From a virus, in the IMG/VR virus record IMGVR_UViG_3300044613_003659, positions 32,001-96,000 of that record: 64,000 bases of DNA; one strand, 5' to 3'. How positions within the stretch are numbered: position 1 is the stretch's first letter; every line of letters starts with the position of its first letter. The position numbers and the translations under genes are program-made. The notes beneath the pieces are model-generated. The model saw only the letters and a program-made list of their open reading frames with translations, was not told where the DNA came from and did not search any database. This document shows positions 515 to 30,608 of the stretch, piece after piece.

Positions 515-591
515 TGGTTGCGGAGAACAGGAATCGAACCTGATGTCTTCAGCTTATGAGACTGACGAGTAAACCGTTTCTCCCCTCCGCC
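515..591 (-). tRNA. tRNA-Met(CAT), possibly initiator-type
   Basis: Cloverleaf, loop CT-CAT-AA, encoded CCA. The G1:A72 mismatch is fMet-like, but the three G:C pairs of the initiator anticodon stem are absent. Confidence 0.85.
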
Positions 592-675
592 ACAGTTTAT
601 CGAAAGCGTTTCAACAACTGTTTAAAACGCCATTTGATGTAATAGGGAATTTCACGTAATGGTATTGTAAACATA

Positions 676-867
676 TTATACCGAATCCTTGTTTGAACTA
701 TCTTTCCTAAAGTTAATAATTTCATCTACCATGATAATTACCCAGCCAAGAAAAGCAGTCATGTATGCCTGACTGGCAACATAATTTTCATCGTAATAGG
801 TTATATAGCAATTTGCAATAATTGTTAAAACAACAATAAAAGGAAAACCCACTCTAACGTATTTCAT
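676..867 (-). CDS. small membrane protein
   Basis: AGGAG SD, two hydrophobic segments. Confidence 0.6.
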   Translation of the reverse strand: MKYVRVGFPFIVVLTIIANCYITYYDENYVASQAYMTAFLGWVIIMVDEIINFRKDSSNKDSV

Positions 868-891
868 AATCTACTCCTAAAATTAAAAGTT

Positions 892-965
892 TGGCTCCGG
901 TGGAGAGAATCGAACTCCCACTAACGGTTTTGGAGACCGCCGCACTGCCATTATACTACACCGGA
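892..965 (-). tRNA. tRNA-Trp(CCA)
   Basis: Loop CT-CCA-AA, TTCGA T-loop, CCA end. Confidence 0.93.
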
Positions 966-970
966 CAGGA

Positions 971-1228
971 TTACTCTGGATTTTTAACCATGTTGGAAAT
1001 CATTGTTTCTCTGCGCTCTTGAATCTCTTTGATTTTTTCTTCACTCTCTAGCTGGCCCAAATTGATTGAATAAATTACCCAGACCATCCAAACAAAAACC
1101 GAAAAGATAAACAAATTAAAAAGAGTTTCGGCATCCAATTGAAACAATGCTACGATTGCAATTGGTCCTAATGCTGCAACAGCTATCATGCCCACAGTAC
1201 GAAGAATTGCTCGAGTTCGAATATTCAT
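971..1228 (-). CDS. small membrane protein
   Basis: AGGAG SD, two TM segments; sigma70-like TTGACA...TAAAAT upstream. Confidence 0.65.
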   Translation of the reverse strand: MNIRTRAILRTVGMIAVAALGPIAIVALFQLDAETLFNLFIFSVFVWMVWVIYSINLGQLESEEKIKEIQERRETMISNMVKNPE

Positions 1229-1283
1229 TACTACTCCTAATTAACTAATGTACTTAACATTTTACTTGAAGTTCTAATAAATG

Positions 1284-1583
1284 TCAATTATATCCGCGAA
1301 CAATATCATCCTCATCGTAATAATGGAATTTGTCCTGTAAGAATCGTTTTTCTTGTATTGTTATTTCTTTGAACCATTTTCTAGGATTACCGCAAATAGA
1401 ACAATTAGAATCACCGCAGTTTAAAATATGTTTTTTATGATTGCGATGTGGTTGAGTTATATACTTCCATTTTGTGTTTTGGTGCATGAGATAATCTTTG
1501 GCTATCTTTATCTGTCTTTCGATCGCTGTATCGTCTCGATACCTACGAGTACTATTTTTAATTTTATCATTTTCGTTTGACAT
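1284..1583 (-). CDS. hypothetical protein with Cys cluster (CGDSNCSICGNPRK)
   Basis: Start moved to MSNEND (AGGAG SD) because the longer ORF overlaps tRNA-Ser. Confidence 0.65.
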   Translation of the reverse strand: MSNENDKIKNSTRRYRDDTAIERQIKIAKDYLMHQNTKWKYITQPHRNHKKHILNCGDSNCSICGNPRKWFKEITIQEKRFLQDKFHYYDEDDIVRGYN

Positions 1584-1601
1584 ACTTGCTCCTGTAAAAT
1601 C

Positions 1602-1692
1602 TGGCGGAAGCGGACGGAGTCGAACCCTCAAGGCGCCATTAACGCTCAACTGTTTTCAAGACAGGTACCATCACCAATTGGTTTGCGCTTCC
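1602..1692 (-). tRNA. tRNA-Ser(TGA)
   Basis: Loop CT-TGA-AA, long variable arm, CCA. Confidence 0.93.
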
Positions 1693-2330
1693 TTGTGACT
1701 ATTAAAACGACTTTCAATTATCTCTTTGAGTTTATGATAATAAGCCAATTGTCCGGCCGGGCCATCATGTCCATTCCACCCATATAAATCATAATCCCAT
1801 GGTTTTATTCCGCTGTATGTTTCATGAAAATTATATCTAGAATACTGATATAAGTTTAATATTCTAGGATTATCTTTGATGTAATCAAAAAACGGTTTCC
1901 GCGGTCCAAAAGGATCCCAATCAAATGCTTTTGAATTATTAATGATGTAATAATTTTTTTTGTATAAATCTAAGCAAGAAACAACACCGACGATTTGACT
2001 GTACGCTATTAGCTCTGCGGTTTCAAAATCAATTCTGCTGATAGCTTCTGGTGTTAATATCTCTTGAAATTTATCTGACTTACATTGCTCTAAATCTAGT
2101 CTGTTTAATGAAGTAAGATTTATTATATAAAAAGTATCAGAATCTAAATTTGATAACAAATGACGATACACTCGTTGGATAATTAAGTTGTTGCTAGAAC
2201 CATGGCCGGAATCATTTACGATAGTTTTTGCTCCCATATCTAATGCAAGATAATGCCAATACATTTGTTCATTGGTTATTATGCCGGGCTGCTCTGAAGT
2301 AAAACTACATCCAGAATTATAAAGTATCAT
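1671..2330 (-). CDS. SGNH/GDSL-like hypothetical protein
   Basis: N-terminal GCSFT, GSSN block, C-terminal NGHDG. Confidence 0.55.
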   Translation of the reverse strand: MILYNSGCSFTSEQPGIITNEQMYWHYLALDMGAKTIVNDSGHGSSNNLIIQRVYRHLLSNLDSDTFYIINLTSLNRLDLEQCKSDKFQEILTPEAISRIDFETAELIAYSQIVGVVSCLDLYKKNYYIINNSKAFDWDPFGPRKPFFDYIKDNPRILNLYQYSRYNFHETYSGIKPWDYDLYGWNGHDGPAGQLAYYHKLKEIIESRFNSHKEAQTNW

Positions 2331-2625
2331 ATGCAGTTACCTCTTTGTTACCTTTCCAGTACATTTATTATCAATTGCTAGTCAGACCAAGTTAAAATAA
2401 ACAATGTTCTATCCTGATCCCACTTGAATGCAACACCTATATTATAAAGTGCTTGACAATCATCATAGGCCCATCGAGCATATCTTGGGCCTACACATTC
2501 ACGTAACCACGATTCAATTGACAATAATCCTTCTATCCAGTCTAACTGAGCTGAATTGCTGATTGGCCACGGTATTTGGGCATGGTATCGGAAAGCATGA
2601 CTGTCCACTAACATGCAGATATTTA

Positions 2626-2703
2626 TGGAGCATCGGGCGTGATTCGAACACGCGGTTGTACAGTTTTGCAGACTGCTGCTTTGGACCACTCAGCCACCGA
2701 TGC
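2626..2703 (-). tRNA. tRNA-Cys(GCA)
   Basis: Loop CT-GCA-AA, U73, CCA. Confidence 0.92.
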
Positions 2704-2711
2704 ATCAAATT

Positions 2712-2786
2712 TGGTCCGGCGTAAGGGAATCGAACCCCTATTTAAAGATTAGAAGTCTTCTGTATTATCCATTATACGAACGCCAG
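2712..2786 (-). tRNA. tRNA-Arg(TCT)
   Basis: Loop CT-TCT-AA, CCA. Confidence 0.92.
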
Positions 2787-2793
2787 TAAAACT

Positions 2794-2870
2794 TGGTGGG
2801 CCGGGTGAGACTCGAACTCACTGTCCCCCGATTATGAGTCGGACGCTTATACCAATTAAGCTTCCGGCCC
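2794..2870 (-). tRNA. tRNA(CAT), probably Ile2 (lysidine type)
   Basis: Loop CT-CAT-AA; GGGCC acceptor start resembles bacterial Ile2. Ile versus Met identity is inferred. Confidence 0.8.
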
Positions 2871-2877
2871 TACAACT

Positions 2878-2962
2878 TGGTGCGACTGGCCGGAATCGAA
2901 CCGGCACGACTTTCGTCGGCAGATTTTAAGTCTGCTGTGTATACCTGTTTCACCACAGTCGC
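2878..2962 (-). tRNA. tRNA-Leu(TAA)
   Basis: Loop CT-TAA-AA, variable arm, CCA. Confidence 0.93.
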
Positions 2963-2970
2963 ATTTTAAA

Positions 2971-3049
2971 TGGTCCGGGAAGTGGGATTCGAACTCACGA
3001 TCTCCTGCTCCCAAAGCAGGCGCTTTAAGCCAGACTAAGCTACACCCGG
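2971..3049 (-). tRNA. tRNA-Pro(TGG)
   Basis: Loop TT-TGG-GA, CCA. Confidence 0.93.
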
Positions 3050-3057
3050 ATAATTTT

Positions 3058-3282
3058 TTATTCTTCCTCGCTTGAATTAAAATATGCTATTATTTTACTA
3101 CGAGCTTCTGCTTCTGTCAAGGCCGGAACAGTTACGGTAGCTGTTCCGTTTTTAATACTAATATCAAATGGTACACGACCATTAGGCATCCAATTTTCTT
3201 CTACAGGAACACTGATAGTAAACTCCTGTAAGTTCATTAATCTGTCAATTACGCTTTTTGTAAGATCGCTTGGACGTGGCAT
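3058..3282 (-). CDS. hypothetical protein
   Basis: AAGGA SD; fills the gap between two tRNAs. Confidence 0.6.
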   Translation of the reverse strand: MPRPSDLTKSVIDRLMNLQEFTISVPVEENWMPNGRVPFDISIKNGTATVTVPALTEAEARSKIIAYFNSSEEE

Positions 3283-3293
3283 AAAGTATCCTT

Positions 3294-3367
3294 TGGTGCC
3301 CCTTGACAGAATCGAACTGCCATCAGAGGATTACAAATCCACTGTATTACCATTATACTAAAAGGGC
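3294..3367 (-). tRNA. tRNA-Thr(TGT)
   Basis: Loop TT-TGT-AA, CCA. Confidence 0.92.
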
Positions 3368-3373
3368 CGAATT

Positions 3374-3468
3374 TGGCGGAGAGTGAGGGATTCGAACCCT
3401 CGATACAGGTTTTAGCCCGTATGTCTTCTTAGCAGGAAGGTGGTTTCAGCCAGCTCACCCAACTCTCC
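3374..3468 (-). tRNA. tRNA-Ser(GCT)
   Basis: Loop CT-GCT-AA, long variable arm, CCA. Confidence 0.93.
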
Positions 3469-3509
3469 AATAACATTATTATATAGTTGAGTAATAGTCC
3501 TGTCAACAA

Positions 3510-4112
3510 TTACATGATAGGACCATTACCGTTACGCATTTCAATTGTACCACCTTCTGCCTTGATTCTTTTAATCAAGTCTTCAAGCAAGATAGGTGCA
3601 AAGTCAGTTTGTTCTACACATACACAATGATAGCGAGGATCAATTCGTTCTCGAACACCCCATTCCATGAACTCCATCATAGAACTAGCTCTGCGCATCA
3701 CACGGTTGGCATGAAGGTGACCGTGTACATTTACACCGAAGCGACCCAGGCTTTCTTCATGTATAGGTATATGACTCAAGATCATGCCACTCATCACATG
3801 ATAGCCACGAATATCTCTAAAGTATTTGGTGTAGTCCTCTAGTTTAAAAATATCATGGTTACCACGGATTAACACTTTGTCGCCGTTGAGACGGCCGAGT
3901 GTGGTCAAATGTTTCCTATTAATAACTACATCACCTAGGTGATATACTTTGTCCTTAGGTCTAACACGCTCGTTCCAGGCTTGGACCATGAACTCGTCCA
4001 TTTCCTCAGGGTCATCCCATGGGCGCAGTTTGGTAATACCGTCATTGCGTAGGAATCTGCAGACGCCGGCGTGACCAAAATGCGTGTCACTTATTAAAAA
4101 AGTTGCCGGCAT
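3510..4112 (-). CDS. calcineurin-like metallophosphoesterase
   Basis: SDTHFGH, HLGD, GNHD and HGHLH motifs. Confidence 0.9.
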   Translation of the reverse strand: MPATFLISDTHFGHAGVCRFLRNDGITKLRPWDDPEEMDEFMVQAWNERVRPKDKVYHLGDVVINRKHLTTLGRLNGDKVLIRGNHDIFKLEDYTKYFRDIRGYHVMSGMILSHIPIHEESLGRFGVNVHGHLHANRVMRRASSMMEFMEWGVRERIDPRYHCVCVEQTDFAPILLEDLIKRIKAEGGTIEMRNGNGPIM

Positions 4113-4125
4113 CTTGTTCTCCTTG

Positions 4126-4431
4126 TTATGCTACTAGCCACTTGGTGTTGGCTTTTAATTCAATTGATTCCGCACCATCAAATTCGTCAATTCTAAACTC
4201 TGTGCCTTGATCTATCCATTCAACAGTTAAATCGTCTAATCCACCAAAATATTCGTTTGGATATTTCAATGTTAGGTAGTGTTCTATTTTGTCTAGTTCT
4301 TTGGCCTCAAGCCATAATACAATACTAGGGTCATAAAGCAGTTCCTCTATTTTGTGCCAAGAATACCAACCGGCACCGTAGTCAGGCGATACGAGAACTG
4401 CTACCTTTCCGTCACGGATTAACTTATTCAT
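4126..4431 (-). CDS. hypothetical phage protein
   Basis: ORF track; translationally coupled to the upstream ORF. Confidence 0.65.
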   Translation of the reverse strand: MNKLIRDGKVAVLVSPDYGAGWYSWHKIEELLYDPSIVLWLEAKELDKIEHYLTLKYPNEYFGGLDDLTVEWIDQGTEFRIDEFDGAESIELKANTKWLVA

Positions 4432-4602
4432 TACAATAACACATTACATGCCTCGTAAAACTTGGTAATATTAAATCTCGTATTAATTTTCATACATGCA
4501 GCGGCTACCGCTGTCGCTGCTTCTACTCTAGTGTTTCTATCTGCAATTTCACTAATATGTTTTGCTATCAACTCAAAGTCTTTTCTAGACATCGTCATCT
4601 CC

Positions 4603-4914
4603 TTAGGCCCAAACAAGTTCACGTGCTGGAAATTCAATCCGGCCATCAAACTCAAGTTGGTCACGCTCAAATTGGGTTAGATAGTCATCGGCTACAATAT
4701 TGAAATCAACAATGTGTTCACGGAAGTACGCACTGTCTTCTTCAATCTGACTACGCAAAGCCATAACAGCCTGGGTCACATCTTTGCCTCGAAAATTCTT
4801 GACCACATAGTCGTTGCCGCCTTTGGCTTTCCAATACTCAGGGCACTCGCCTTTGCCGTCCCAATCGTGGGCGCCGTAGTTTTCGTAAACTTGGGTAGTG
4901 ATTACTAGTTTCAT
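4603..4914 (-). CDS. hypothetical early phage protein
   Basis: AAGGAG SD directly below the early promoter at 4943-4971. Confidence 0.7.
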   Translation of the reverse strand: MKLVITTQVYENYGAHDWDGKGECPEYWKAKGGNDYVVKNFRGKDVTQAVMALRSQIEEDSAYFREHIVDFNIVADDYLTQFERDQLEFDGRIEFPARELVWA

Positions 4915-4942
4915 AACAGCTCCTTTGCTTTACTATACCTGT

Positions 4943-5022
4943 ATTATAGCAAAATGAGCCATTATGGTCTACCGTTTTGTTTTGTTGCAAGAATAGCAAC
5001 AAACGTTGCTAGAATAGTAACA
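4943..5022 (-). promoter_or_regulatory. early sigma70-type promoter with two upstream GTTGC-N7-GCAAC-type palindromes
   Basis: TAGACC-17 nt-TATAAT (4971-4943); palindromes at 4983-5001 and 5004-5022. Confidence 0.75.
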
Positions 5023-5028
5023 ATGTAG

Positions 5029-5102
5029 TGGAGCGGGGTAAGAGAATCGAACTCTCAGCATGAGCTTGGAAGGCTCAGGTATTACCATTATACGAACCCC
5101 GC
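5029..5102 (-). tRNA. tRNA-Gly(TCC)
   Basis: Loop CT-TCC-AA, CCA. Confidence 0.93.
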
Positions 5103-5110
5103 ATAAAATT

Positions 5111-5185
5111 TGGCGGTCGGTACGGGAGTCGAACCCGTGACTACGGCGTGACAGGCCATTATTATCACCGTTTAACTAACCGACC
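5111..5185 (-). tRNA. tRNA-Asp(GTC)
   Basis: Loop CT-GTC-AC, G73, CCA. Confidence 0.92.
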
Positions 5186-5191
5186 TACAAC

Positions 5192-5268
5192 TGGCTCCAG
5201 GAATAGGAATCGAACCTATCTGATGAACGGATTAACAGTCCGCTGCCCCACCTTGTGGCCGTCCTGGA
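5192..5268 (-). tRNA. tRNA-Asn(GTT)
   Basis: Loop CT-GTT-AA, CCA. Confidence 0.92.
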
Positions 5269-5275
5269 ATAAAAC

Positions 5276-5349
5276 TGGTGCCTCGTGATGGAATCGAACC
5301 ACCGTAACCACCGTGTAAGGATGGAGTTCTACCATTAAACTAACGAGGC
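5276..5349 (-). tRNA. tRNA-Val(TAC)
   Basis: Loop CT-TAC-AC, CCA. Confidence 0.92.
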
Positions 5350-5350
5350 T

Positions 5351-5647
5351 TTAAATATATCTATCAATGTTTAGTCCTACTGCACTAGCACGTTGAACTA
5401 ATCTTTGTTCTTTGATACTTTCGCCAAAGGCATAAAGTCTTAAAAATTCTGTTTGTTTGTCATAATCATAATTTCGCTGTAACCTTGTGGCTTCTTGAAT
5501 TGCCATCAAATGGGCTAATTCTCTCATTTCCTGCTGATCAATGTCCTTGCGTTTCATGTCCATAAGAACCTGCACTCGCTGACCAATCATTTGATAATCA
5601 TTCAAATAAGCATAAGGCACACGATATATAATCATAACTATTCCCAA
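5351..5647 (-). CDS. hypothetical protein
   Basis: ORF fills the gap between two tRNAs; start uncertain. Confidence 0.55.
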   Translation of the reverse strand: MGIVMIIYRVPYAYLNDYQMIGQRVQVLMDMKRKDIDQQEMRELAHLMAIQEATRLQRNYDYDKQTEFLRLYAFGESIKEQRLVQRASAVGLNIDRYI

Positions 5648-5649
5648 TT

Positions 5650-5734
5650 TGGTGGGGATGGAAGGAATCGAACCTACTCACCCGAAAGAACTGATTTACA
5701 GTCAGCCGCCACTCTCCAACTTAGCCGCATCCCC
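5650..5734 (-). tRNA. tRNA-Tyr(GTA)
   Basis: Loop CT-GTA-AA, variable arm, CCA. Confidence 0.93.
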
Positions 5735-5735
5735 T

Positions 5736-6380
5736 CTATTGCCAAAATTTAATTATTCTACCAGATATGTTAGAATTGAAAGTATTTAAATTTTCATAAA
5801 TTCTACTGATAGTTTTTGACAGTTTTTCACTGTTATCATATTCAAAATGTGTGGAAATAGAATAGACTATAACACCTTTATCATTATGTTTAGCTAGTGC
5901 AAACATTAAATGAGTTTGTGCCGCTTTACCTCCAGGATGACCTACTGAACTGGTAGCAAAATTTCTTGGCACAGCAAAGGCCAATCCACTGGTCATAAAA
6001 ACTATTTTACTATTTTTTTCCATTTTTGTCAGTGCAATAGTAGCAATGATATGTGGAATTATAGCTTGAATAGAAAGGGTAGCTATCCAAGAATTTGTTA
6101 TTCTAGTTATATCTGCTCCTGTGCAATAATCTTCTTCGCTACAAGGGCCGTAATCTGCATTAGAATTGTAAAGAAACAAGTCAATTTTATCAATGTTCTC
6201 TATTAGCTTTTTAAATTTATTCACTACATCATGAATGTCAAAAAAATTTGCGTATAAGTGGTTTGGATTATTTCCGTAATCTTTATGACTCAATATGTAA
6301 ACATTATTACCTTCATCTCGAAATTTATCTGCAATAATTTTTCCGAACTTTTGCCCGCCGCCAATAATAACCACATTCAT
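5736..6380 (-). CDS. short-chain dehydrogenase/reductase-like (Rossmann) protein
   Basis: VIIGGGQKFG dinucleotide-binding motif, IVFMTS; HxxxK in place of YxxxK. Confidence 0.7.
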   Translation of the reverse strand: MNVVIIGGGQKFGKIIADKFRDEGNNVYILSHKDYGNNPNHLYANFFDIHDVVNKFKKLIENIDKIDLFLYNSNADYGPCSEEDYCTGADITRITNSWIATLSIQAIIPHIIATIALTKMEKNSKIVFMTSGLAFAVPRNFATSSVGHPGGKAAQTHLMFALAKHNDKGVIVYSISTHFEYDNSEKLSKTISRIYENLNTFNSNISGRIIKFWQ

Positions 6381-6398
6381 AGTAGATTCCTGATATAA

Positions 6399-6474
6399 TG
6401 GTGGAGGTGACAGGACTTGAACCCGCTACCTTGACCTTGCAAAGGTCCTGCTCTCCCAGGTGAGCTACACCCCC
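6399..6474 (-). tRNA. tRNA-Ala(TGC)
   Basis: Loop TT-TGC-AA, G3:U70, CCA. Confidence 0.93.
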
Positions 6475-6476
6475 AA

Positions 6477-6725
6477 TTATTCTTTTACGTCTTTTGCATC
6501 AACGCACGTTTCGCCTCTAAACACGTATACATCAGAGTCTACTCGCAGTTGTTCAAATACTTGATTGTTTACACAAATATATGGATCTTTGTGATTTTCC
6601 ATATAAAAGAAAATGCCATATCCAATACCCGCTAATACCATCAATACAGGTACATATTTTAAATATTTTACAATTTCGGGCATAGCACCCAAAATTTGCG
6701 GTAAGTTCTTGAGCAATTCTTTCAT
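6477..6725 (-). CDS. small membrane protein
   Basis: One TM segment; ATAAATA late-type box just upstream of the ATG. Confidence 0.55.
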   Translation of the reverse strand: MKELLKNLPQILGAMPEIVKYLKYVPVLMVLAGIGYGIFFYMENHKDPYICVNNQVFEQLRVDSDVYVFRGETCVDAKDVKE

Positions 6726-6738
6726 GCTCGTATTTATG

Positions 6739-6814
6739 TGGCACACCCAACCGGATTCGAACCGGTGTAACCACCGTGAAAGGGTGGTGTCCTAGGCCAC
6801 TAGACGATGGGTGC
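6739..6814 (-). tRNA. tRNA-Glu(TTC)
   Basis: Loop CT-TTC-AC, CCA. Confidence 0.93.
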
Positions 6815-6816
6815 AT

Positions 6817-6978
6817 CTATTTTTCAACTCTACATTCAGCATTCATTTTACTATTCACTGCTCTTAATCTTGCATTCCAAGTTTTTGCTGATTCTAAGCA
6901 CTTAAGTTCGTTAGGAAACTTTTCGTAGATAGTAAAGTTTTCAGGAAATTGTATCCAAAACACTAACACCCAAGTCAT
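6817..6978 (-). CDS. 53-aa protein with hydrophobic N-terminus and two Cys (not in ORF track)
   Basis: AGGAG SD; MTWVLVFWIQFPENF...KFPNELKC...ECRVEK. Confidence 0.6.
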   Translation of the reverse strand: MTWVLVFWIQFPENFTIYEKFPNELKCLESAKTWNARLRAVNSKMNAECRVEK

Positions 6979-7043
6979 TGCAATCTCCTGTTATGACACT
7001 TAGACCACTGGTACTTGTTAGGTAATCCAATAACCAAAAAATT

Positions 7044-7469
7044 TCATTTATCTGTTATAATTTTTTTACAGTCTAGTAACCAAAGGGCAGCATCGTCTTT
7101 ATCAATAATTAACTTTGCAACGCCATTTCTAGACCAGTAATAACTAAAAATTTTTGTATGTTGATCTGTTTCAAAATAAAACGACTCTTCCGGTAATTGC
7201 CAGGATTCTATAAAAAATCCATCTATTTCTAAACTATCAATGCGAATAAATTTATCAGCTACAATTTCACCATTACTGGTGATTGTGTCATTATCTTTCC
7301 TGTTACCTAAATGAAACTCAATAGTTGTAGGTAATGCAATATCAACATTGACGCAAAATATATCTTTCGTCTCTATTTGTTTAATTTGATTGCCAAATTT
7401 AAGTTCAAGAAACATATATTCATCAGATACCTGTCCTGCTGAAAAATTAAATTTAAAACTAGCAATCAT
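7044..7469 (-). CDS. hypothetical protein
   Basis: ORF track; coupled to the upstream ORF. Confidence 0.6.
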   Translation of the reverse strand: MIASFKFNFSAGQVSDEYMFLELKFGNQIKQIETKDIFCVNVDIALPTTIEFHLGNRKDNDTITSNGEIVADKFIRIDSLEIDGFFIESWQLPEESFYFETDQHTKIFSYYWSRNGVAKLIIDKDDAALWLLDCKKIITDK

Positions 7470-8116
7470 AAAAAGTTATTTGCAGCCAAAAAACTCTTGA
7501 CTTCTGACACCGGACTCAACCATCTCATTTGAAATACTTCTCTAAAGCCAGCATTTATAACTCCGTGATCAACTGAAGCATCAATTAAGTTTATTGTACC
7601 AGGTATTGATTGATAAGTTTCTTTATGACCTGTTACTTTATCTATGGCATAACTATATGCTTTTGGATCTGTAGAAGTTATGATTAAATTCAAGTTACAA
7701 ATTTTTTTTGATTCATTTTGAAATGGTTGTGCATTCCAAGTATATTCAGGAATTCCGTCATAATGTTTTATTAATTCTCCATAATGTTCAAAAAAACTAA
7801 ATCCTACAAAATTTAACTTTGCTTCTTTACTTTTTGTAGCAAAATTTTTTAACTCTTGAGGTAAAATATATTCTAAAAAAAGCCCTGACCAAACATAAAA
7901 ATCACAAGCGGAAACATATTTTTTTGATTTATCTACAGTCATTGAACCGTACTTACCTATGCTTCCTCTATAGGCTTGATAACCTGGTTCAAATTCTAAC
8001 TTCAATTCGTTGTTATCAATCTTTTCACGTATTCTATAATATATTTTTCTAATTCTGTCAGAATCAATTTTGATTTTTAAATTTTTTACTGGACAGCAGA
8101 GTAGATTTTTGGACAT
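7466..8116 (-). CDS. 2OG-Fe(II) oxygenase-like protein
   Basis: HxD (KHYD) ... H (DHGV) ... R pattern. Confidence 0.5.
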   Translation of the reverse strand: MSKNLLCCPVKNLKIKIDSDRIRKIYYRIREKIDNNELKLEFEPGYQAYRGSIGKYGSMTVDKSKKYVSACDFYVWSGLFLEYILPQELKNFATKSKEAKLNFVGFSFFEHYGELIKHYDGIPEYTWNAQPFQNESKKICNLNLIITSTDPKAYSYAIDKVTGHKETYQSIPGTINLIDASVDHGVINAGFREVFQMRWLSPVSEVKSFLAANNFL

Positions 8117-8173
8117 AAAATTCTTTCGTCTATTAAATATTTAATAGACTAATTTCTCAACACAAATATATTT

Positions 8174-8367
8174 TGGATGTAATTGCTTAGGCCACGCTTT
8201 TCCACGGTCGCCCCCAAGCTGAGTTGTTACCCTGTCCGAACACTAAAGGACTTTGCCGCGTAGTGTTCACGCTGCTATGTCGTCTGAGTTGCCCCGCTAA
8301 AGGTGCCATAGCCACCTGGATTTTCTCGTGCACCACACGCCACTTTCAGGAAAGTGGTAACCGGAAA
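8174..8367 (-). ncRNA. unclassified ~195-nt structured RNA
   Basis: GC-rich non-coding island with stems CCACTTT/AAAGTGG, GCTATG/CATAGC, GAACACTA/TAGTGTTC and GCTTGGG/CCTAAGC. Confidence 0.65.
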
Positions 8368-8452
8368 CCATATTGAAACACACTCATCTCGCACCGTCAT
8401 ATAGGCGATCAACTCTATACGCTTATAGGCATCAAAATGTGCTTCAATATGG
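8368..8452 (-). ncRNA. long-stem RNA element E1, starting at the CCA of tRNA-Leu
   Basis: 16-bp closing stem CCATATTGAAGCACAT/GTGTGTTTCAATATGG, fully paired on the minus strand (two G:U). Confidence 0.6.
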
Positions 8453-8530
8453 TGCCCCAGGAGGGACTCGAACCCTCACCCGAAGACTGGCTTCTAAGAC
8501 CAGCGTGTCTACCAGTTCCACCACCGGGGC
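8450..8530 (-). tRNA. tRNA-Leu(TAG)
   Basis: Loop CT-TAG-AA, CCA. Confidence 0.93.
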
Positions 8531-8629
8531 ATTTACTGCTTGATTGTTAATGAACGTTTACTGCACTATTTCATTATTATATAAAACTAGTGATTAATTG
8601 TCAACCTAAAGTGTCTTATAAATATTGCA

Positions 8630-9691
8630 ATGAATAAAGTGTTTACAATCAAGCCAAATTTATTTCCAAAGAAAAACTTTAAAGATTTGTACTGCCCGGA
8701 TCCATTTGAAACAGTTCAAATTGATCAAGCAGGTAATGTTCGTTTATGTGGATGCGAAAACTGGCATCCTCAGCAAATAGGAAACATATTTCAACAATCA
8801 TTAGTAGAAATTTTTAATAGTAAATTAGCCAATCAAATTAGACAAAGTATACGTGATGGTTCCTATATATATTGCAACGAACAAACGTGTGGAAGCATAA
8901 TTAATCAAACATTAATTCCGTTAAATAAACTTGACCCAGAGCTTCAAAAAAAATTTACTACCTGCGATTACTTTGAAATGCCTTATACTTTTTATATTGC
9001 CGGCGATGATACTTGTAATCTAAGTTGCCCAAGTTGTCGCACAAGAGTAATTGATAAAAATGAATATAACCTCACGCAAAATTCTGCAGCATTAAATATT
9101 TTAAATGAACAAATTTTCAATGGATCAAGCGATAAAAATATTACTATAAAATTAAGCACATCCGGCGAAGTGTTTGCCAGTACTTTGTTAATGGAATTTG
9201 TTTCAAAATTCAACATTCAAAACTATCCTAAAGCAGAATTTTGGTTTCAAAGTAATGGACTTTTGATCAGCAGTAGATGGAACAGAATAGCGCATATCGC
9301 CGATCACATACAAAATTTCACTATTACAGCAGACAGTTGTACCAAAGCCACTTACGAAAAACTTCGAAGAGGTGGTAAGTTTGAAAAATTGCTTGATAAC
9401 TTAAATTTTTTGAAAATTAAAAAACATCAGCATCATTTTCATTTTATGTTACGTATAGTAGTGCAATATGACAACTATAGCGAACTAGAACAGTTTTATA
9501 ATTTTGCCAAATCGTATGATGTTGATTTAGTTGAATATGTTAGAATCACCAATTGGAACACATATTCTCAAGAACAGTTTTCTAGTATCGATGTCCTTGA
9601 TGCCAGACATCCATTATACGATACTGTTTCTAGTAAATTAAAAGTACTGCACCAGCGACCCGATGTAAAAATTTATGGAGCAACTTTGTAA
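8630..9691 (+). CDS. radical SAM protein with N-terminal SPASM/twitch-like Cys domain
   Basis: CNLSCPSC; N-terminal CPDPF...LCGC...IGNI; TATAAATA just upstream of the ATG. Confidence 0.85.
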   Translation: MNKVFTIKPNLFPKKNFKDLYCPDPFETVQIDQAGNVRLCGCENWHPQQIGNIFQQSLVEIFNSKLANQIRQSIRDGSYIYCNEQTCGSIINQTLIPLNKLDPELQKKFTTCDYFEMPYTFYIAGDDTCNLSCPSCRTRVIDKNEYNLTQNSAALNILNEQIFNGSSDKNITIKLSTSGEVFASTLLMEFVSKFNIQNYPKAEFWFQSNGLLISSRWNRIAHIADHIQNFTITADSCTKATYEKLRRGGKFEKLLDNLNFLKIKKHQHHFHFMLRIVVQYDNYSELEQFYNFAKSYDVDLVEYVRITNWNTYSQEQFSSIDVLDARHPLYDTVSSKLKVLHQRPDVKIYGATL

Positions 9692-9693
9692 AA

Positions 9694-9769
9694 TGGCAGT
9701 AGAGATCGGATTCGAACCGATGATAGCCACCGTATGAAGATGGTGCATTAGCCACTATGCTACTCTACT
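9694..9769 (-). tRNA. tRNA-Met(CAT), elongator-type
   Basis: Loop TT-CAT-AC, paired 1:72, CCA. Confidence 0.85.
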
Positions 9770-9999
9770 TTGGATTTTACTAATTTGATTATTTTTTCAA
9801 TTGTGATAGCATCAGCAGCTTCGTCGGCTTGGATAGCTATCTTGAACACTCGTTCAATATCCATGGTGATCTCTACGGTGTCAAGCGAGTCGGCACCAAG
9901 ATCAGCAACAATGGCATGCGCCATTGATAACTCTGCTGGATCTACTCCAAACTGATTGGCAATTATTTCAAATATTTTTGATTCTATGTCAGTCAACAT
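9760..9999 (-). CDS. acpP: acyl carrier protein
   Basis: DLGADSLDTVE phosphopantetheine motif, 79 aa, acidic. Confidence 0.9.
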   Translation of the reverse strand: MLTDIESKIFEIIANQFGVDPAELSMAHAIVADLGADSLDTVEITMDIERVFKIAIQADEAADAITIEKIIKLVKSKVE

Positions 10000-10714
10000 A
10001 TTGATACACTAGCCTACTTTGGTTGATTGAATTCATACTAACTACTTCGTTTTCAGTGGTGCCTCTGCGTATGTAAATACCCTCATGTATGAAGCTGTTA
10101 CGTTTAAAAACTGCACCTGGTTTTAGAGCTTTTACAGCCACTCCAAAAAATACATCCGGCTCCACAACGTTGTTGCCGGTCAAAATGCATTGTCTTTGAA
10201 ACACGCAATTTTTACCTACCACATTGTCATGCCCTATTAGCGTATTATAGTATATGCTAACAAAATCGCCAATCTTTGATTTTACCTCTATCATTACATG
10301 TGCATCCAAAAATACTCCGCGCCCAATTTCTGCATACTTGAGCATTCGTGCATCCCTATCAACCAAACTGATACAGTTTAGACTGTTGGATTCAATCAAG
10401 TCAATCAAACGATTTCGCTTTTGTCTGTTGCGTACAGCAACAGGAGATTGTTCCGGTATCCAATTGGTAGCACAGAAAAAATTATAGTTGTTTCTGTAGT
10501 GCGCCAATTTTGCAGTGTCATTGATAAATGATTCTGAATCAATGACAGGAATCTCACACAGTTGATCACAGTTACCGTAGTAATCAGAATCAATTATGCC
10601 AGCAACTGTAATGCCGTGGTCTTCGCAAATGCCGGCCAACTTGTACATTATGCTGTTTGATCCCAGAAATATCAAAGGCCGAGTGGCGTCATTGATGTGC
10701 GAGATATGCGTCAT
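9989..10714 (-). CDS. hexapeptide-repeat (LbH) acyltransferase, NeuD/PglD-like
   Basis: IGRGVF, IGDFVS and IGHDNVVG repeats after a Rossmann-like N-domain; start trimmed to MTHISH. Confidence 0.75.
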   Translation of the reverse strand: MTHISHINDATRPLIFLGSNSIMYKLAGICEDHGITVAGIIDSDYYGNCDQLCEIPVIDSESFINDTAKLAHYRNNYNFFCATNWIPEQSPVAVRNRQKRNRLIDLIESNSLNCISLVDRDARMLKYAEIGRGVFLDAHVMIEVKSKIGDFVSIYYNTLIGHDNVVGKNCVFQRQCILTGNNVVEPDVFFGVAVKALKPGAVFKRNSFIHEGIYIRRGTTENEVVSMNSINQSRLVYQYVD

Positions 10715-11750
10715 GTTGCTCTTCTTCAAATATCCTACGACGTTCTTGATCAACAAGACTTGCAAATTGATCATGTGTGATTGTTTCACCTTTGAATCTC
10801 AATGTGTTCATTGGCGCTGCATGTTCATACAACTTGTCCCAATAGGTAATTACTCTTGCCATGGTTCTACGGTCACCATCTTTGACATTGGTAGGGCGTT
10901 TGTGCAACGTGATCTCTTGGTCCATGAATACAATTTGCCCATCTTGCCAATGCTGGCTGTAAACCCAACGATTGTTATATACTATTCTTTTTAACTCATC
11001 AAATAGTCTCACACTTTCATCCATACTCATTCCCACAAATCCATCAAAACTGTGTGCAGGAAATTTAATACCCGGTAATCCTGTGACTGACTCGGCATAC
11101 AATCTAGTTTCTGTACCGTCCAGTGGTGCTTGATTGTAGCGTATGACCAAGCTGGGAGTTGGTTCTAGGTCTGGCGCCATACGTCCTTCTACCCAACGGT
11201 GTTTGCAATATAATTCTTTGACTGTGCTTTGCATATCGGCACTCATTGAGTCAAATGCATCATGGGTGCATAAAAATTGTGTACAACTGTTGGCAGTATC
11301 ACTTACGCTTTGCAGACCAATCACTCTTGGACTGTCATCGTATGCACATTGATCACTGTGCCAGTCTAGTTCACCATTTGGAAACAATCCCTTGGGACGA
11401 TTCTTTTCGTCTTTTTTGTATGTGACAGCAGAAACTGCAGAAATCATTTGTTTGTCTACATTTCTGATGTCTTTGGTTGTATATCCTAGGTGTAAATAAA
11501 TTTCTCTCCAATGCCGCCCATTCAAGCGTTCACTTACAATATAATCGTGTATAAGTGCGCGGCTGGGCCTGCCCCACTGAGTCTGTATTTCAAACAGTCT
11601 TTGTGTACTGATCTTTTGATCCACTAGAACAATACACTGGCTAGCAACTAGGCGCCCAAATTCAAGTATTTCCTCATCGGAGTTCAAATCAATATCATAC
11701 ACTTCTACACCTACACTGGCGCTATAATTCTTTAACGCACGAATTTTCAT
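10689..11750 (-). CDS. TauD/TfdA-family 2OG-Fe(II) dioxygenase
   Basis: GVEVYDIDL, WHSD, TQF, HWQDGQIVFMD...LHKR, R..R. Confidence 0.88.
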   Translation of the reverse strand: MKIRALKNYSASVGVEVYDIDLNSDEEILEFGRLVASQCIVLVDQKISTQRLFEIQTQWGRPSRALIHDYIVSERLNGRHWREIYLHLGYTTKDIRNVDKQMISAVSAVTYKKDEKNRPKGLFPNGELDWHSDQCAYDDSPRVIGLQSVSDTANSCTQFLCTHDAFDSMSADMQSTVKELYCKHRWVEGRMAPDLEPTPSLVIRYNQAPLDGTETRLYAESVTGLPGIKFPAHSFDGFVGMSMDESVRLFDELKRIVYNNRWVYSQHWQDGQIVFMDQEITLHKRPTNVKDGDRRTMARVITYWDKLYEHAAPMNTLRFKGETITHDQFASLVDQERRRIFEEEQHDAYLAHQ

Positions 11751-11927
11751 AACATTATCCTCTTAAAATTTTTTTTGTAGGCTAGCAGCAATCTGCATAC
11801 GGACGGCGTTCTACATGTAACACAGTAGTAAAAGGGTCGTACCCTAAGCGTCATAGTGATACCGACGTCAACTGTTGTTGGCGTTGCAAAATTATTTATA
11901 ATTAATTGTGTGTAATAAAAAAATACT

Positions 11928-12004
11928 TGGTACCCACTCCTGGAATCGAACCAGGGACCCCAACCTTATCAAGATTGTGCTCTAACCGACTGAGCTAAGT
12001 GGGC
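11928..12004 (-). tRNA. tRNA-Ile(GAT)
   Basis: Loop TT-GAT-AA, CCA. Confidence 0.93.
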
Positions 12005-12005
12005 A

Positions 12006-12080
12006 TGGCCGGTCCGGACAGATTCGAACTGCCGACAGCTGGTTTCGAAGACCAGAACTCTTCCGCTGAGCTACGGACCG
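12006..12080 (-). tRNA. tRNA-Arg(TCG)
   Basis: Loop CT-TCG-AA, CCA. Confidence 0.92.
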
Positions 12081-12110
12081 TTAAATAAAAGTATGCTTGG
12101 TAAATTAATA

Positions 12111-12187
12111 TGTTGGGTCTGGATGGATTTGAACCAACTACCTCCGTGTTGTTTGCACGGTGCTCTACCAGATTGAGCTACAGACCT
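12111..12187 (-). tRNA. aberrant tRNA-like gene, anticodon AAC (Val-like), no CCA
   Basis: Canonical D-arm TAGCTCAATCTGGTAGAGC, stem CCGTG/CACGG, loop CA-AAC-AA, T-loop TTCAAAT, ends ACA. Confidence 0.65.
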
Positions 12188-12264
12188 CCCCGGTCCGGGA
12201 ACTAATTCTCCTGCAACCGGTACAATATTTATAGGACAACAATTTACATAGTTCGAGAACTTAT

Positions 12265-12966
12265 ATGACATTACACATCATTGGACACAGTATGACAATC
12301 GGGCATCATTGTCATGAATCACAGTCAAATCGAAATTTACCTACAACATTCAGTGACATGTTGATAGAAAAATATCGTGATCAATTTGATGTTCAAGTGC
12401 ATTCCTACAGACAATGTTCTGAAGAACGAATTTTACAGATTGTAAGAACAATAAAGTCGCCCATCGATAAAGTGATTATTTTCCATTCCCACCCGTCATT
12501 TGTTTATTTTCCTAGTTTTGATCGAGACATTGGATGCATAGATGATATAGAATATATACAAAGTTTAGATATTGTATGTTACTATAATTACTGTAAACCC
12601 GGAAAACCATTTGACCCTAACGATAAGCTTTCTAGACCCATATCCGGCTCTGAGTTCGTGCAGATATATAAAACAGTTATGAACTACACGGTGTCAGCTG
12701 ATGTTTCACAAAAACGTTTCAATGGAGCAATACTACAAATTGATCAACTGCTAACAGTTAGAAAAATTCCTGTGATACATTGTCCAATGGCCAAAACATT
12801 ACCAGTCTGGTTTAATTTTTCTTCTGGCATTACAGATAACGAGTTGAGTATCATCGACTCGGGTAAACATAATATAGGGTACCAAAGATCTTTAAACGCT
12901 ATTGATAATGAAGGGAATACAATTATCTTTAATAAATTATCAGAATATATTGACAATTTAACTTAA
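12265..12966 (+). CDS. hypothetical protein (SGNH-like N-terminus)
   Basis: IIGHSMT; 233-aa ORF antisense to the tRNA array. Confidence 0.6.
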   Translation: MTLHIIGHSMTIGHHCHESQSNRNLPTTFSDMLIEKYRDQFDVQVHSYRQCSEERILQIVRTIKSPIDKVIIFHSHPSFVYFPSFDRDIGCIDDIEYIQSLDIVCYYNYCKPGKPFDPNDKLSRPISGSEFVQIYKTVMNYTVSADVSQKRFNGAILQIDQLLTVRKIPVIHCPMAKTLPVWFNFSSGITDNELSIIDSGKHNIGYQRSLNAIDNEGNTIIFNKLSEYIDNLT

Positions 12967-13042
12967 TGGTGCCGGCTCCTGGTTACGCTCCAGGCCATTA
13001 TGCTCTTCAGGCATACGCTTCCACTAGGTTAGCTTAGACGGC
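12967..13042 (-). tRNA. tRNA-Phe(GAA), atypical T-loop
   Basis: Loop CT-GAA-GA; T-loop AGCGTAA; CCA. Confidence 0.85.
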
Positions 13043-13043
13043 A

Positions 13044-13119
13044 TGGGGTGTCCGACCGGTATCGATCCGGTACTACCAGTTTCACAGACTAGTGTGCAGG
13101 CCACTACACTACGGACACC
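13044..13119 (-). tRNA. tRNA-His(GTG)
   Basis: Loop CT-GTG-AA, G-1:C73, CCA. Confidence 0.92.
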
Positions 13120-13121
13120 AC

Positions 13122-13196
13122 TGGTAGGGGATGAGGGATTCGAACCCCCGCATGGCGGAATCAAAATCCGCTGTCTTACCGCTTGACGAATCCCCA
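13122..13196 (-). tRNA. tRNA-Gln(TTG)
   Basis: Loop TT-TTG-AT, U1:A72, CCA. Confidence 0.92.
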
Positions 13197-13197
13197 A

Positions 13198-13347
13198 TTA
13201 ACTTGGTATGACTTTTGGAATGTAAGGAACATTCCTGGGCCCGTGACGTTGTTCAAACAACATTCTTGCTTCTTGCAAATCTTTTGCGTACACACGATCT
13301 TTTTGATCACCTTGCGGTGTTCTTACTGTAGTTTCATACATTGGCAT
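13198..13347 (-). CDS. small hypothetical protein (MPMYETTVRTP...)
   Basis: AAGGAG SD; start trimmed. Confidence 0.6.
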   Translation of the reverse strand: MPMYETTVRTPQGDQKDRVYAKDLQEARMLFEQRHGPRNVPYIPKVIPS

Positions 13348-13362
13348 TACCGTCTCCTTGTA

Positions 13363-13459
13363 CCATATAGAAACACACTGTGGGATTCGAACCCTCACTC
13401 TCGGCATCAGAGAGCATTACCACCCGTCGTGCCCTTCGGCTCAATGTGTTTTTATATGG
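13363..13459 (-). ncRNA. long-stem tRNA-like element E2, starting at the CCA of tRNA-Lys
   Basis: 18-bp closing stem (one mismatch) around a D-like TGGTAA arm, a CTCTC/GAGAG arm with 7-nt loop and a GGGTTCGAATCCC T-arm. Confidence 0.7.
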
Positions 13460-13533
13460 TGGGTGCGGTGAGATTCGAACTCACGACTCTCTGATTAAAA
13501 GTCAGATACTCTAACCAACTGAGTTACGCACCC
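13457..13533 (-). tRNA. tRNA-Lys(TTT)
   Basis: Loop CT-TTT-AA, CCA. Confidence 0.93.
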
Positions 13534-13686
13534 TTACGTTTGGGACCGCCGTCCGTCTTGTCACTGTCCATATGTCTCCTTAAAAATATATTTTACATCT
13601 ATTTTACATTACGGTCAACCATTACTAAAATTACTATTGTAAAAAATAATACTGTCAAAGCCCCATTTTGGTTTCCTCCTAAAAAA

Positions 13687-13863
13687 TTATTTAAATGGAA
13701 TACACCCTGCACTCGCTCTATAGTTTTCAATTTGAATAGTTTTTACTGCCTGATCTCGAGCCCTAATACAAGATTCGTAGTTTGGGAATTTCGCTTGAAT
13801 ACTACCGCTACTGGTTGGCAACTCAGATGTATTACTCCATAATGAAATTACCAGAATCCACAT
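13687..13863 (-). CDS. 58-aa protein with hydrophobic N-terminus and two Cys (not in ORF track)
   Basis: AAGGAGG SD; MWILVISLW...KFPNYESCIRA...AGCIPFK. Confidence 0.65.
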   Translation of the reverse strand: MWILVISLWSNTSELPTSSGSIQAKFPNYESCIRARDQAVKTIQIENYRASAGCIPFK

Positions 13864-13882
13864 ACAGCCTCCTTGTTGTATT

Positions 13883-13977
13883 TGGTAGTAGGCCAGGGAT
13901 TCGAACCCTGTCGTTCCAGCCCATCTAGCCAGTCTCCACGGTTTATAAGTCCGCGCCGCATACCAATGCTGCCTACC
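13883..13977 (-). tRNA. unusual tRNA with anticodon TAT (Ile-like), long variable region, short D-arm
   Basis: Acceptor GGTAGGC/GCCTACT-ACCA, loop CT-TAT-AA, T-arm CAGGG-TTCGAAT-CCCTG. Confidence 0.8.
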
Positions 13978-14466: not shown

Positions 14467-14508
14467 ATAGAATTTAATTACAACCTTAGATTCTATGATC
14501 CCCCCAGG
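14456..14508 (-). promoter_or_regulatory. antiterminator hairpin overlapping leader codons 33-39 and the terminator 5' arm
   Basis: CCTGGGG (14508-14502) pairs with CCCCAGG (14462-14456); ATAGAATCTAA pairs with TTAAATTCTAT (10 of 11). Confidence 0.8.
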
Positions 14509-14605
14509 CACGATTACTATCACCGCGTGTAATCATAACCCAATAGGCTATTAGCCCAAATTCGGGTTGTGATTTAAATGAGCAATGTAATTGTACTTGG
14601 TTCAT
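14486..14605 (-). CDS. 39-aa attenuator leader peptide MNQVQLHCSFKSQPEFGLIAYWVMITRGDSNRAWGDHRI (not in ORF track)
   Basis: Manual translation; all 20 amino acids by codon 29; lies between promoter and terminator. Confidence 0.8.
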   Translation of the reverse strand: MNQVQLHCSFKSQPEFGLIAYWVMITRGDSNRAWGDHRI

Positions 14606-22345: not shown

Positions 22346-22397
22346 TCTGTAATCTCCATTTAATGTGCGATGCACAATAATATTTAAACACACTAAG

Positions 22398-23995: not shown

Positions 23996-24051
23996 ACGAT
24001 TTTTCCTATTATACAGTTATATTTATAAAAATAGGCACCTAAGTGCCTATT

Positions 24052-24366
<315 letters not shown>

Positions 24367-24771
24367 ATACGTTTACTTACGTAAAAACCAAATCATATCT
24401 AAATATTTTTGAAGATGTTTTTCTTGAACGGATTTAGCCCAACTTGGTTGTGGTAAATTCCACCCAATAAATGCACCTACCATAATCCAAAAAATTGTTT
24501 CTAACATTGTACGCTCCTTTGTTTTTTTACATTAGAAAACCATACAAAGCACACCATAATTCAAGAAGAACATAATATCCAGCATATGCTAGTATGCATA
24601 CCACTATTAAATCAACCACTGACCGAATATCATTTATTTTCATCGTCTTTGTTTTCTTTGATCCATTCATAATAGATTAAGCCTAATGCAACGGATATAC
24701 TACCAACTAGTAAAACTCCGAGCAAAAAGCCTACAATAAAATACAAACGGTTTACTTCATCCACCTAATAT

Positions 24772-27449: not shown

Positions 27450-27692
27450 TTTATACTCTCCACAAGTAAGTTGAAAATTTAGATTACTGTTTGTAACCAT
27501 ACCACTATTATATTGCCATTCGAACAACAGGTCAACCTGTTTTTGGTCGGCAATTTAACCAAAATCATTTACTAAGTTCTACTGCTTGAGTTTTGGTAAC
27601 ATTTACAGCCTTATCCAGCATACGAGCAATACCCGCAAAGCCAATGGTAGCTACCACAATGCCAAAAATGGTTCCGTAAATAAAAGTCTTCA

Positions 27693-29397: not shown

Positions 29398-29429
29398 TTT
29401 TGCTACTCCTTATTAGTTACTATACCAAT

Positions 29430-29527: not shown

Positions 29528-29555
29528 AAAGTTGCAATTAATTTAACGGTAGAAA

Positions 29556-30602: not shown

Positions 30603-30608
30603 TTATTT

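Follow-up and report, generated by a model that had tools for sequence, protein, structure and literature searches.

Large phages are known to carry near-complete sets of tRNA genes. Among the described systems closest to the one considered here is that of coliphage T5 (NC_005859), in which about 24 tRNA genes form a minus-strand array interleaved with small open reading frames (ORFs), many promoters, and tRNA-like stable RNAs. Here, we studied a similarly built tRNA array at positions 515-13977 of a 64,000-nucleotide stretch of viral DNA (the window) that corresponds to bases 32001-96000 of the 107,596-bp IMG/VR record IMGVR_UViG_3300044613_003659 (hereafter the 107.6-kb contig). All seven family-box tRNAs of T5 carry uridine at the wobble position (U34), its CAT genes comprise initiator (fMet), elongator Met, and Ile2 types, and 23 of 25 minimal decoding classes are present. 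However, T5 lacks Arg-UCG and Leu-UAA, so that CGN and UUR codons would be unreadable with its own tRNAs, whereas the window array is complete. T5 also has an extra Ser-GGA, a pseudo Gln-CUG, and HNH endonucleases inside its array, and lacks the long-arm UAU tRNA described below; the window array sits in a giant uncultured freshwater phage unrelated to T5.

A review (PMC4086613) gives 25 tRNA species as the theoretical minimum with full wobble and superwobble, rarely found in nature, and covers the 25-species minimum of the tobacco plastid (Alkatib et al. 2012), whose class list, a U34 tRNA for each four-codon box and 17 further tRNAs, is that of the window array. The reduced sets of plastids, mycoplasmas, and mitochondria operate without any other tRNAs and with U34 known to be unmodified, whereas the phage set coexists with host tRNAs and is joined by a 26th tRNA. 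A survey whose unit is the isotype rather than the decoding class reports eight viral clusters with all 20 isotypes (Morgado and Vicente 2019, PMC6409571), and Xanthomonas phage XacN1 (PMC5852040) also covers all 20 amino acids, but redundantly, with 56 tRNA genes. None of the 15 top-ranked of 20 papers naming superwobble, phage, and tRNA together describes a phage set as the superwobble minimum in its title or abstract. The array is a clean, well-conserved example of the large-phage habit, not a new kind of system. On balance, we favor reading it as a working, complete phage tRNA complement, with 25 decoding classes and a second reader of AUA, that would allow self-sufficient decoding.

Gene content of the array

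A first-pass annotation, made from the sequence alone, had claimed 25 CCA-encoding tRNAs, one per decoding class. This is borne out: 25 tRNA genes lie on the minus strand within 515-13533, with exactly the anticodons it listed. With default settings ARAGORN reports 24 minus-strand tRNAs between 519 and 13533, namely 23 of the 25 and an odd "Val-AAC," as well as a permuted transfer-messenger RNA (tmRNA); a relaxed threshold adds Ser-UGA (1602-1692) and Phe-GAA (12967-13042). The genes are as follows:

515-591, minus strand: CAT-A, initiator type; G1:A72 unpaired; 2:71, 3:70, 4:69, 5:68, and A73 like E. coli metZ; A11:U24 by inspection
892-965, minus strand: tRNA-Trp CCA (ARAGORN); G73 and CCA
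1602-1692, minus strand: tRNA-Ser UGA with variant D arm (relaxed ARAGORN, score 98; Rfam 34.4 bits, cut-off 29)
2626-2703, minus strand: tRNA-Cys GCA (ARAGORN); U73
2712-2786, minus strand: tRNA-Arg UCU (ARAGORN)
2794-2870, minus strand: CAT-B, Ile2 (lysidine) type; C4:G69, C5:G68, A73; pairs 29-31/39-41 as in E. coli ileX
2878-2962, minus strand: tRNA-Leu UAA (ARAGORN)
2971-3049, minus strand: tRNA-Pro UGG (ARAGORN); C1:G72, A73
3294-3367, minus strand: tRNA-Thr UGU (ARAGORN)
3374-3468, minus strand: tRNA-Ser GCU (ARAGORN)
5029-5102, minus strand: tRNA-Gly UCC with C32 (ARAGORN); U73; loop CUUCCAA
5111-5185, minus strand: tRNA-Asp GUC (ARAGORN); G73
5192-5268, minus strand: tRNA-Asn GUU (ARAGORN; Rfam 39.7 bits)
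5276-5349, minus strand: tRNA-Val UAC (ARAGORN)
5650-5734, minus strand: tRNA-Tyr GUA (ARAGORN)
6399-6474, minus strand: tRNA-Ala UGC (ARAGORN, which draws G3:U70)
6739-6814, minus strand: tRNA-Glu UUC (ARAGORN)
8450-8530, minus strand: tRNA-Leu UAG (ARAGORN)
9694-9769, minus strand: CAT-C, elongator Met type by exclusion; paired 1:72, without C4:G69/C5:G68, loop UUCAUAC, G73
11928-12004, minus strand: tRNA-Ile GAU (ARAGORN)
12006-12080, minus strand: tRNA-Arg UCG (ARAGORN); class absent from the candidate host-lineage genome, which has ACG and CCG
12967-13042, minus strand: tRNA-Phe GAA with variant T and D loops and G37 (relaxed ARAGORN, score 92; no Rfam match)
13044-13119, minus strand: tRNA-His GUG with encoded G-1; C73
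13122-13196, minus strand: tRNA-Gln UUG (ARAGORN); unpaired U1:U72
13457-13533, minus strand: tRNA-Lys UUU (ARAGORN)

Each of the eight four-codon boxes has a single U34 tRNA (UGC, UCG, UCC, UAG, UGG, UGA, UGU, and UAC), the only other family-box-like gene in the array being a decayed Val-like relic without CCA. The 17 split-box tRNAs (Phe, Leu-UAA, Ile-GAU, the three CAT genes, Tyr, His, Gln, Asn, Lys, Asp, Glu, Cys, Trp, Ser-GCU, and Arg-UCU) represent all 16 split-box elongator classes and the initiator by one gene each. In the ARAGORN register, N73 followed by CCA is encoded in 24 of the 25 genes. The remaining gene (CAT, 515-591) has A73-CCA only if read with an unpaired G1:A72, ARAGORN drawing an 8-bp acceptor stem and no CCA. 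All tRNA-model matches of the contig fall within the array stretch, where 26 genes in 13.5 kb amount to 1.9 per kb overall; sub-clusters with spacers of 1-9 nt are far denser (the cluster criterion of PMC6409571 is at least two per kb).

Relatives and the conserved core

The phosphoesterase gene inside the array (3510-4112) has at least 599 relatives in viral contigs; a search for relatives with an ORF resembling short-chain dehydrogenases/reductases (5736-6380) gave no matches, and the array, compared by megablast with 50,697 phage records, gave only short tRNA-Lys matches and no close relative. The tRNA order is common to four arrays, those of the window, L001, L002, and L014. The 25 genes of L014 make up the identical set. 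In L001 and L002 the set is extended by Arg-ACG and the UAU tRNA, and in L002 also by Gly-GCC; no relics of the Arg-ACG and Gly-GCC genes held by these close relatives were found on the contig. Among 20 distinct arrays with at least 25 tRNAs, 17-20 contain any given one of the 23 core anticodons (13 for Tyr). Individual extras are found in 1-15 of these arrays (UAU 15, GCC 15, CAA 12, GGU 10, ACG 7, CCU 6), the variable ones including Gly-GCC, Thr-GGU, Arg-ACG, and Leu-CAA. In two larger relatives all tRNAs lie within one region. The gene content of these arrays indicates that the minimal set is a conserved core in part of the phage family and that the arrays form a continuum with the exactly minimal one at one end, with helpers for codons ending in U or C (NNY) gained or lost around the core.

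Structural conservation and identity elements

Two genes look weak in isolation. tRNA-Phe goes unreported by Rfam at E<=1; its T loop reads AGCGUAA, its D loop is unusual, position 37 is G, and there is one U:C mismatch. However, this variant Phe subfamily also occurs in L001, L070, L046, L054, and L051, and 18 of 22 pairs show compensatory changes across 14 orthologues. The Ser-UGA gene, too, is a variant form that is conserved: compensatory changes among orthologues maintain its acceptor, anticodon, and T stems. We considered whether the two genes are pseudogenes, and covariation led us to reject this; the first-pass annotation had asked whether several genes might prove to be pseudogenes, and here the stems of both covary and identity elements are conserved. 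In the phage clade more widely, nearly all tRNA-Phe genes have G37 instead of A37, and in one Phe subfamily non-canonical T loops (AGCGUAA, CGCGGAA) co-vary with the D loops.

The known identity rules of bacterial synthetases provide a yardstick for conserved elements. Clade-wide, the discriminators are U73 in 42 of 42 tRNA-Cys and 61 of 61 tRNA-Gly genes, G73 in 30 of 30 tRNA-Asp genes, and G73 in 43 of 44 tRNA-Trp genes. For tRNA-His, C73 is present in 19 of 19 and an encoded G-1 in 19 of 23, a G at that position occurring in 4% of other tRNAs. C1:G72 is found in 27 of 29 tRNA-Pro genes, and the 1:72 pair of tRNA-Gln is unpaired. As read from the genes, the identity elements of the array fit bacterial synthetases.

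The three CAT genes, which had been expected to resolve into initiator, elongator Met, and Ile2 tRNAs, do so when compared with the annotated E. coli K-12 genes metZ, metT, and ileX and with their orthologues in the clade. CAT-A (515-591) is initiator-like at 2:71 (G2:C71), 3:70 (C3:G70), 4:69, 5:68, and A73, with 1:72 unpaired; its D stem GAGA/ACUC gives A11:U24, in a register with one extra nucleotide near the T arm. CAT-B (2794-2870) equals ileX at C4:G69, C5:G68, A73, and pairs 29-31/39-41, the first three being determinants of E. coli TilS. CAT-C (9694-9769) has neither the initiator nor the Ile2 signature and is therefore, by exclusion, classed as elongator Met. Among 83 distinct CAT tRNAs of relatives, these three classes are found again. 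In the initiator class, syntenic orthologues included, the 1:72 mismatch is kept while its bases vary (C:A, G:A, A:A, U:U, C:U), which points to selection on the mismatch itself. No TilS-family gene was found on the contig (29% of the genome); lysidine at C34 of CAT-B would need a host enzyme.

These patterns bear on whether the array could be a largely neutral or decaying tRNA island that is complete by accident. Such an island would fit the one clearly decayed tRNA (12114-12187) and the tRNA-like relic (13370-13450) within the array, as well as a tRNA number that varies from 12 to about 31 among relatives. However, purifying selection is evident from the compensatory changes, the conserved identity elements, the gene order kept in four relatives, and the conserved core set, and the chance of drawing one of each class is 25!/25^25, or ~2e-10, even under the kindest null, in which 25 draws are made from only these 25 classes. 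We disfavor this explanation and regard it as very improbable. The set is complete, as had been claimed, and looks functional: identity elements are kept, and the stems of the Phe, Ser-UGA, and UAU tRNAs keep their pairing through compensatory changes.

Promoters and the leader ORF

Within 15.5 kb we found four sigma-70 sites matching at least 11 of 12 consensus positions, all on the tRNA strand (expected 0.82, P ~0.007). Two are perfect, against 0.023 expected. Three of the four directly precede tRNA clusters and the fourth precedes a small ORF and then tRNA-Trp; they are listed here together with a leader ORF:

1259-1287, minus strand: sigma-70-like promoter before the small ORF and tRNA-Trp (11/12, 17-nt spacer)
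3092-3120, minus strand: sigma-70-like promoter before the Pro-Leu-Ile2-Arg-Cys cluster (11/12, 17-nt spacer)
3478-3506, minus strand: perfect sigma-70 consensus promoter before the Ser-GCU/Thr cluster (12/12, 17-nt spacer)
8576-8604, minus strand: perfect sigma-70 consensus promoter before tRNA-Leu UAG (12/12, 17-nt spacer)
14486-14605, minus strand: 39-codon leader ORF upstream of the array, sampling all 24 elongator decoding classes

Because these sites match the consensus, host RNA polymerase can probably express the clusters, as in the annotated tRNA region of T5. The layout is that of a T5-type cluster: numerous tRNA genes share one strand, small ORFs and tRNA-like RNAs lie between them, and promoters of the host type precede them. 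The codon content of the leader peptide had been said to match the tRNA set, and it does: the 39 codons specify all 20 amino acids and include at least one codon from each of the 24 elongator classes (P ~2e-4 by codon-usage sampling), as does 1 of 2153 real windows.

We propose that several clusters are transcribed from these consensus host-type promoters, that the transcripts are probably processed like bacterial tRNAs, with the CCA end already encoded, and that host synthetases charge the products. No member of the CCA-adding enzyme family was found on the contig (29% of the genome). Translation of the AT-rich phage genome would then depend little on the tRNA pool of the host. In each four-codon box, the one U34 tRNA matches the favored A-ending codon and could also cover the rest of the box, through either host cmo5U-type (uridine 5-oxyacetic acid) modification or superwobble. 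A host modification of the cmo5U type, as in E. coli and Salmonella tRNAs, would serve just as well as unmodified U34, and the only hint in the sequence that bears on four-codon reading by U34 is C32 of Gly-UCC. If the 25 tRNAs suffice, the whole code would be decoded naturally with the theoretical minimum inside a bacterial cytoplasm, and the array would offer a ready-made minimal tRNA set for superwobble tests and for cell-free or recoded translation systems.

Host, codon usage, and alternative explanations

The contig is 29% complete by CheckV estimate, implying a genome of about 370 kb, and the complete genome of a relative whose marker protein is 77% identical measures 356,865 bp. Matches to PHROG and Pfam (DNA polymerase, tail fiber, PstS, and others) identify a tailed phage. 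The PstS gene (21320-22393, minus strand) encodes a protein with 73%-77% identity to proteins of freshwater Burkholderiales genomes and contains no AUA codon, against a phage average of 23 per 1000; this suggests a recently acquired, host-derived gene and thus a hint at the host. The permuted (two-piece) tmRNA (23997-24397, minus strand; tag ANAANDEVFALAA, ARAGORN) matches the Rfam permuted and betaproteobacterial tmRNA models. The PstS identity and the betaproteobacterial tmRNA match make a freshwater Burkholderiales host a reasonable, if unproven, guess.

All 61 codons occur in the phage, with a third-position GC content (GC3) of 0.29, and in most family boxes the codon ending in A (NNA) ranks first. 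A metagenome-assembled genome (MAG) from the candidate host lineage has a GC3 of 0.65 and several isoacceptors per box, with Arg-ACG and Arg-CCG and no Arg-UCG. If the host is of this kind, the tRNAs might do no more than compensate for codon usage, topping up A/U-rich codons that the GC-richer Burkholderiales host reads poorly while host tRNAs still work, and completeness would be a by-product. Compared with the MAG, the phage makes greater use of the codons that are Watson-Crick cognates of its own tRNAs (mean log2 ratio +0.53 vs. -0.42, Mann-Whitney P=0.011), and every NNA cognate has a phage/MAG ratio above 1 (UUA 6.8x, AGA 5.7x, AUA 4.1x), so that compensation also predicts the choice of U34 throughout.

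Other features of the set go beyond compensation. Trp, Met, and initiator tRNAs read single codons, which leave synonymous bias nothing to act on, and the NNC cognates of six of the eight G34 tRNAs are underrepresented in the phage. Across relatives, the 25-class core is retained in its entirety, and relatives with partial sets retain Trp, Cys, and Met rather than the readers of UUA, AGA, and AAA. The commonest extras of relatives, Gly-GCC, Thr-GGU, and Arg-ACG, read NNY codons, which a GC-rich host, having these tRNAs itself, already decodes well, so supplementation alone is insufficient to explain them. The host on which the codon comparison depends is itself inferred. The first-pass annotation had called the array a backup kit rather than codon-bias supplementation: the complete set and conserved core speak for the first half of that statement, whereas its dismissal of supplementation is unproven, with the U34 cognates all enriched relative to the MAG. 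Codon compensation is still viable, but as the sole explanation we think it rather unlikely.

Self-sufficient decoding, the reading we favor, also has several points against it. Codon compensation explains the anticodon choices equally well. Of the Gly and CGN-Arg codons of the phage, 68% end in U or C, and it is at these codons that reading by U34 alone is expected to be least efficient. The assignment of CAT-A is imperfect, in that its cloverleaf register is ambiguous and its anticodon stem (A29:U41, G30:C40, U31:G39) has one of the three initiator G:C pairs (clade orthologues have one or two). The complete 356-kb relative has only 12 tRNAs, which means that the full set is not obligatory in the phage family. 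Further, the contig being about 29% of the genome, more tRNA genes may lie elsewhere.

A different role for a self-contained set would be counter-defense, in which phage tRNAs replace host tRNAs cut by tRNA-targeting nucleases or toxins, the phage copies being altered to escape cleavage. Phage tRNAs that overcome tRNA-cleaving defenses are established: four papers (PMC10264068, PMC11464382, PMC11555353, PMC13096335) describe phage tRNAs that rescue infection from PARIS, retron, or Septu-type tRNA cleavage, and propose escape through changes in the anticodon loop. In the array, the anticodon loops of Phe (G37, C32, with altered T and D loops), His, elongator Met, Leu-UAG, and Val differ from those of candidate host-lineage tRNAs. 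However, the loop is identical in 16 of the 21 shared classes, the host used for this comparison is uncertain, and no known single defense targets all 25 classes. RNA ligase families, which would include a tRNA repair ligase, were not found on the contig (29% of the genome). Counter-defense is improbable as the explanation of the whole set. Both supplementation and counter-defense are live possibilities that are not mutually exclusive with a self-sufficient set, and the pressure maintaining the array could be codon mismatch, host tRNA loss, or tRNA-cleaving defenses.

The long-arm UAU tRNA

The more novel element of the array is a 26th CCA-ending tRNA:

13883-13977, minus strand: tRNA with anticodon UAU, long variable arm, and A73-CCA (family covariance model, 93.1 bits)

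It has a G1:U72 pair, and 11 members of its family align as a cloverleaf with an extra hairpin in which 21 of 25 pairs show compensatory changes. A covariance model of the family (R1) scores the window copy at 93.1 bits and 19 members at 52 bits or more, ordinary tRNAs reaching at most 47 bits. The loop of the variable arm contains AGAU in 18 of 19 members, mostly as CAGAUUA or CAGAUAA. Homologues occur at L036:4740-4831 and in two cultured phages, namely in Sinorhizobium phage Phosso (L200:2995-3087), where the gene is auto-annotated as tRNA-Ile(tat), and in Synechococcus phage S-SRM01 (L201:3001-3091), where it is unannotated.

With the UAU tRNA present beside Ile2-CAU, AUA is covered twice. 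The claim that the set is non-redundant fails at AUA and thus holds only approximately. Across 27 large arrays, with the window copy counted from the covariance model, AUA readers are UAU alone in 9, UAU with Ile2 in 7, and Ile2 alone in 5; the other 6 have neither in ARAGORN, and two of these (L037 and L076) carry the UAU tRNA by the covariance model.

Our tentative proposal, which we hold to be possible and no better than that, is that the long-arm UAU tRNAs are an undescribed, widespread phage class reading AUA as Ile independently of host lysidine synthase. If so, phages would decode their abundant AUA codons as Ile without that enzyme. The near-invariant AGAU hairpin, which contains GAU, the anticodon of the ordinary Ile tRNA, could act in this proposal as an identity or anti-determinant element. 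The sole architectural precedent that we found is the nematode V-arm tRNA with anticodon UAU (nev-tRNA-Ile, PMC3333845, PMC4300185), likewise class II-shaped with an Ile anticodon. The nematode nev-tRNAs, however, are eukaryotic and charged with leucine in vitro, whereas the phage tRNA has the conserved AGAU in the loop of its variable arm. We also considered recoding of AUA by the long-arm tRNA and saw no sign of it: in UDP-glucose dehydrogenase, 17 AUA positions align with Ile in 77% of cases vs. 73% for AUU/AUC, a weak comparison whose reference proteins are phage relatives. PstS, with zero AUA codons, could not serve for it.

Relics and neighboring features

Two further tRNA-like elements lie within the array:

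12114-12187, minus strand: decayed Val-like tRNA; loop CAAACAA, A33, A1:C72, ACA in place of CCA
13370-13450, minus strand: tRNA-like element; T arm, 8-bp terminal stem, 6-nt "anticodon" loop, no CCA

The first resembles Val-GAC of L031 and L044 and is probably a decaying redundant isoacceptor. The second has a good T arm and 86% identity to L001:4620-4711.

Some relatives carry unusual anticodons. Those with A34 in split boxes are Ser-ACU, replacing GCU, in L003, L004, L005, L043, and L071, and Asn-AUU in L039; amber-suppressor-like CUA tRNAs are found in L009 and L010. Between tRNA-Leu(UAG) and the next ORF of the window, a non-coding stretch of ~190 nt (8177-8366) is 93% identical to L002:7531-7723 and ~80% identical to L001 and L010; by analogy with those annotated in the T5 tRNA region, it may be a stable RNA. 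Enzyme genes lie in or beside the array at window positions 8630-9691 (plus strand), 9989-10789 (minus), and 10689-11750 (minus), and at G000 27319-32472. They comprise a radical SAM/SPASM protein (on the opposite strand), a hexapeptide transferase, a TauD-family dioxygenase, a B12-binding radical SAM protein, and a carbamoyltransferase.

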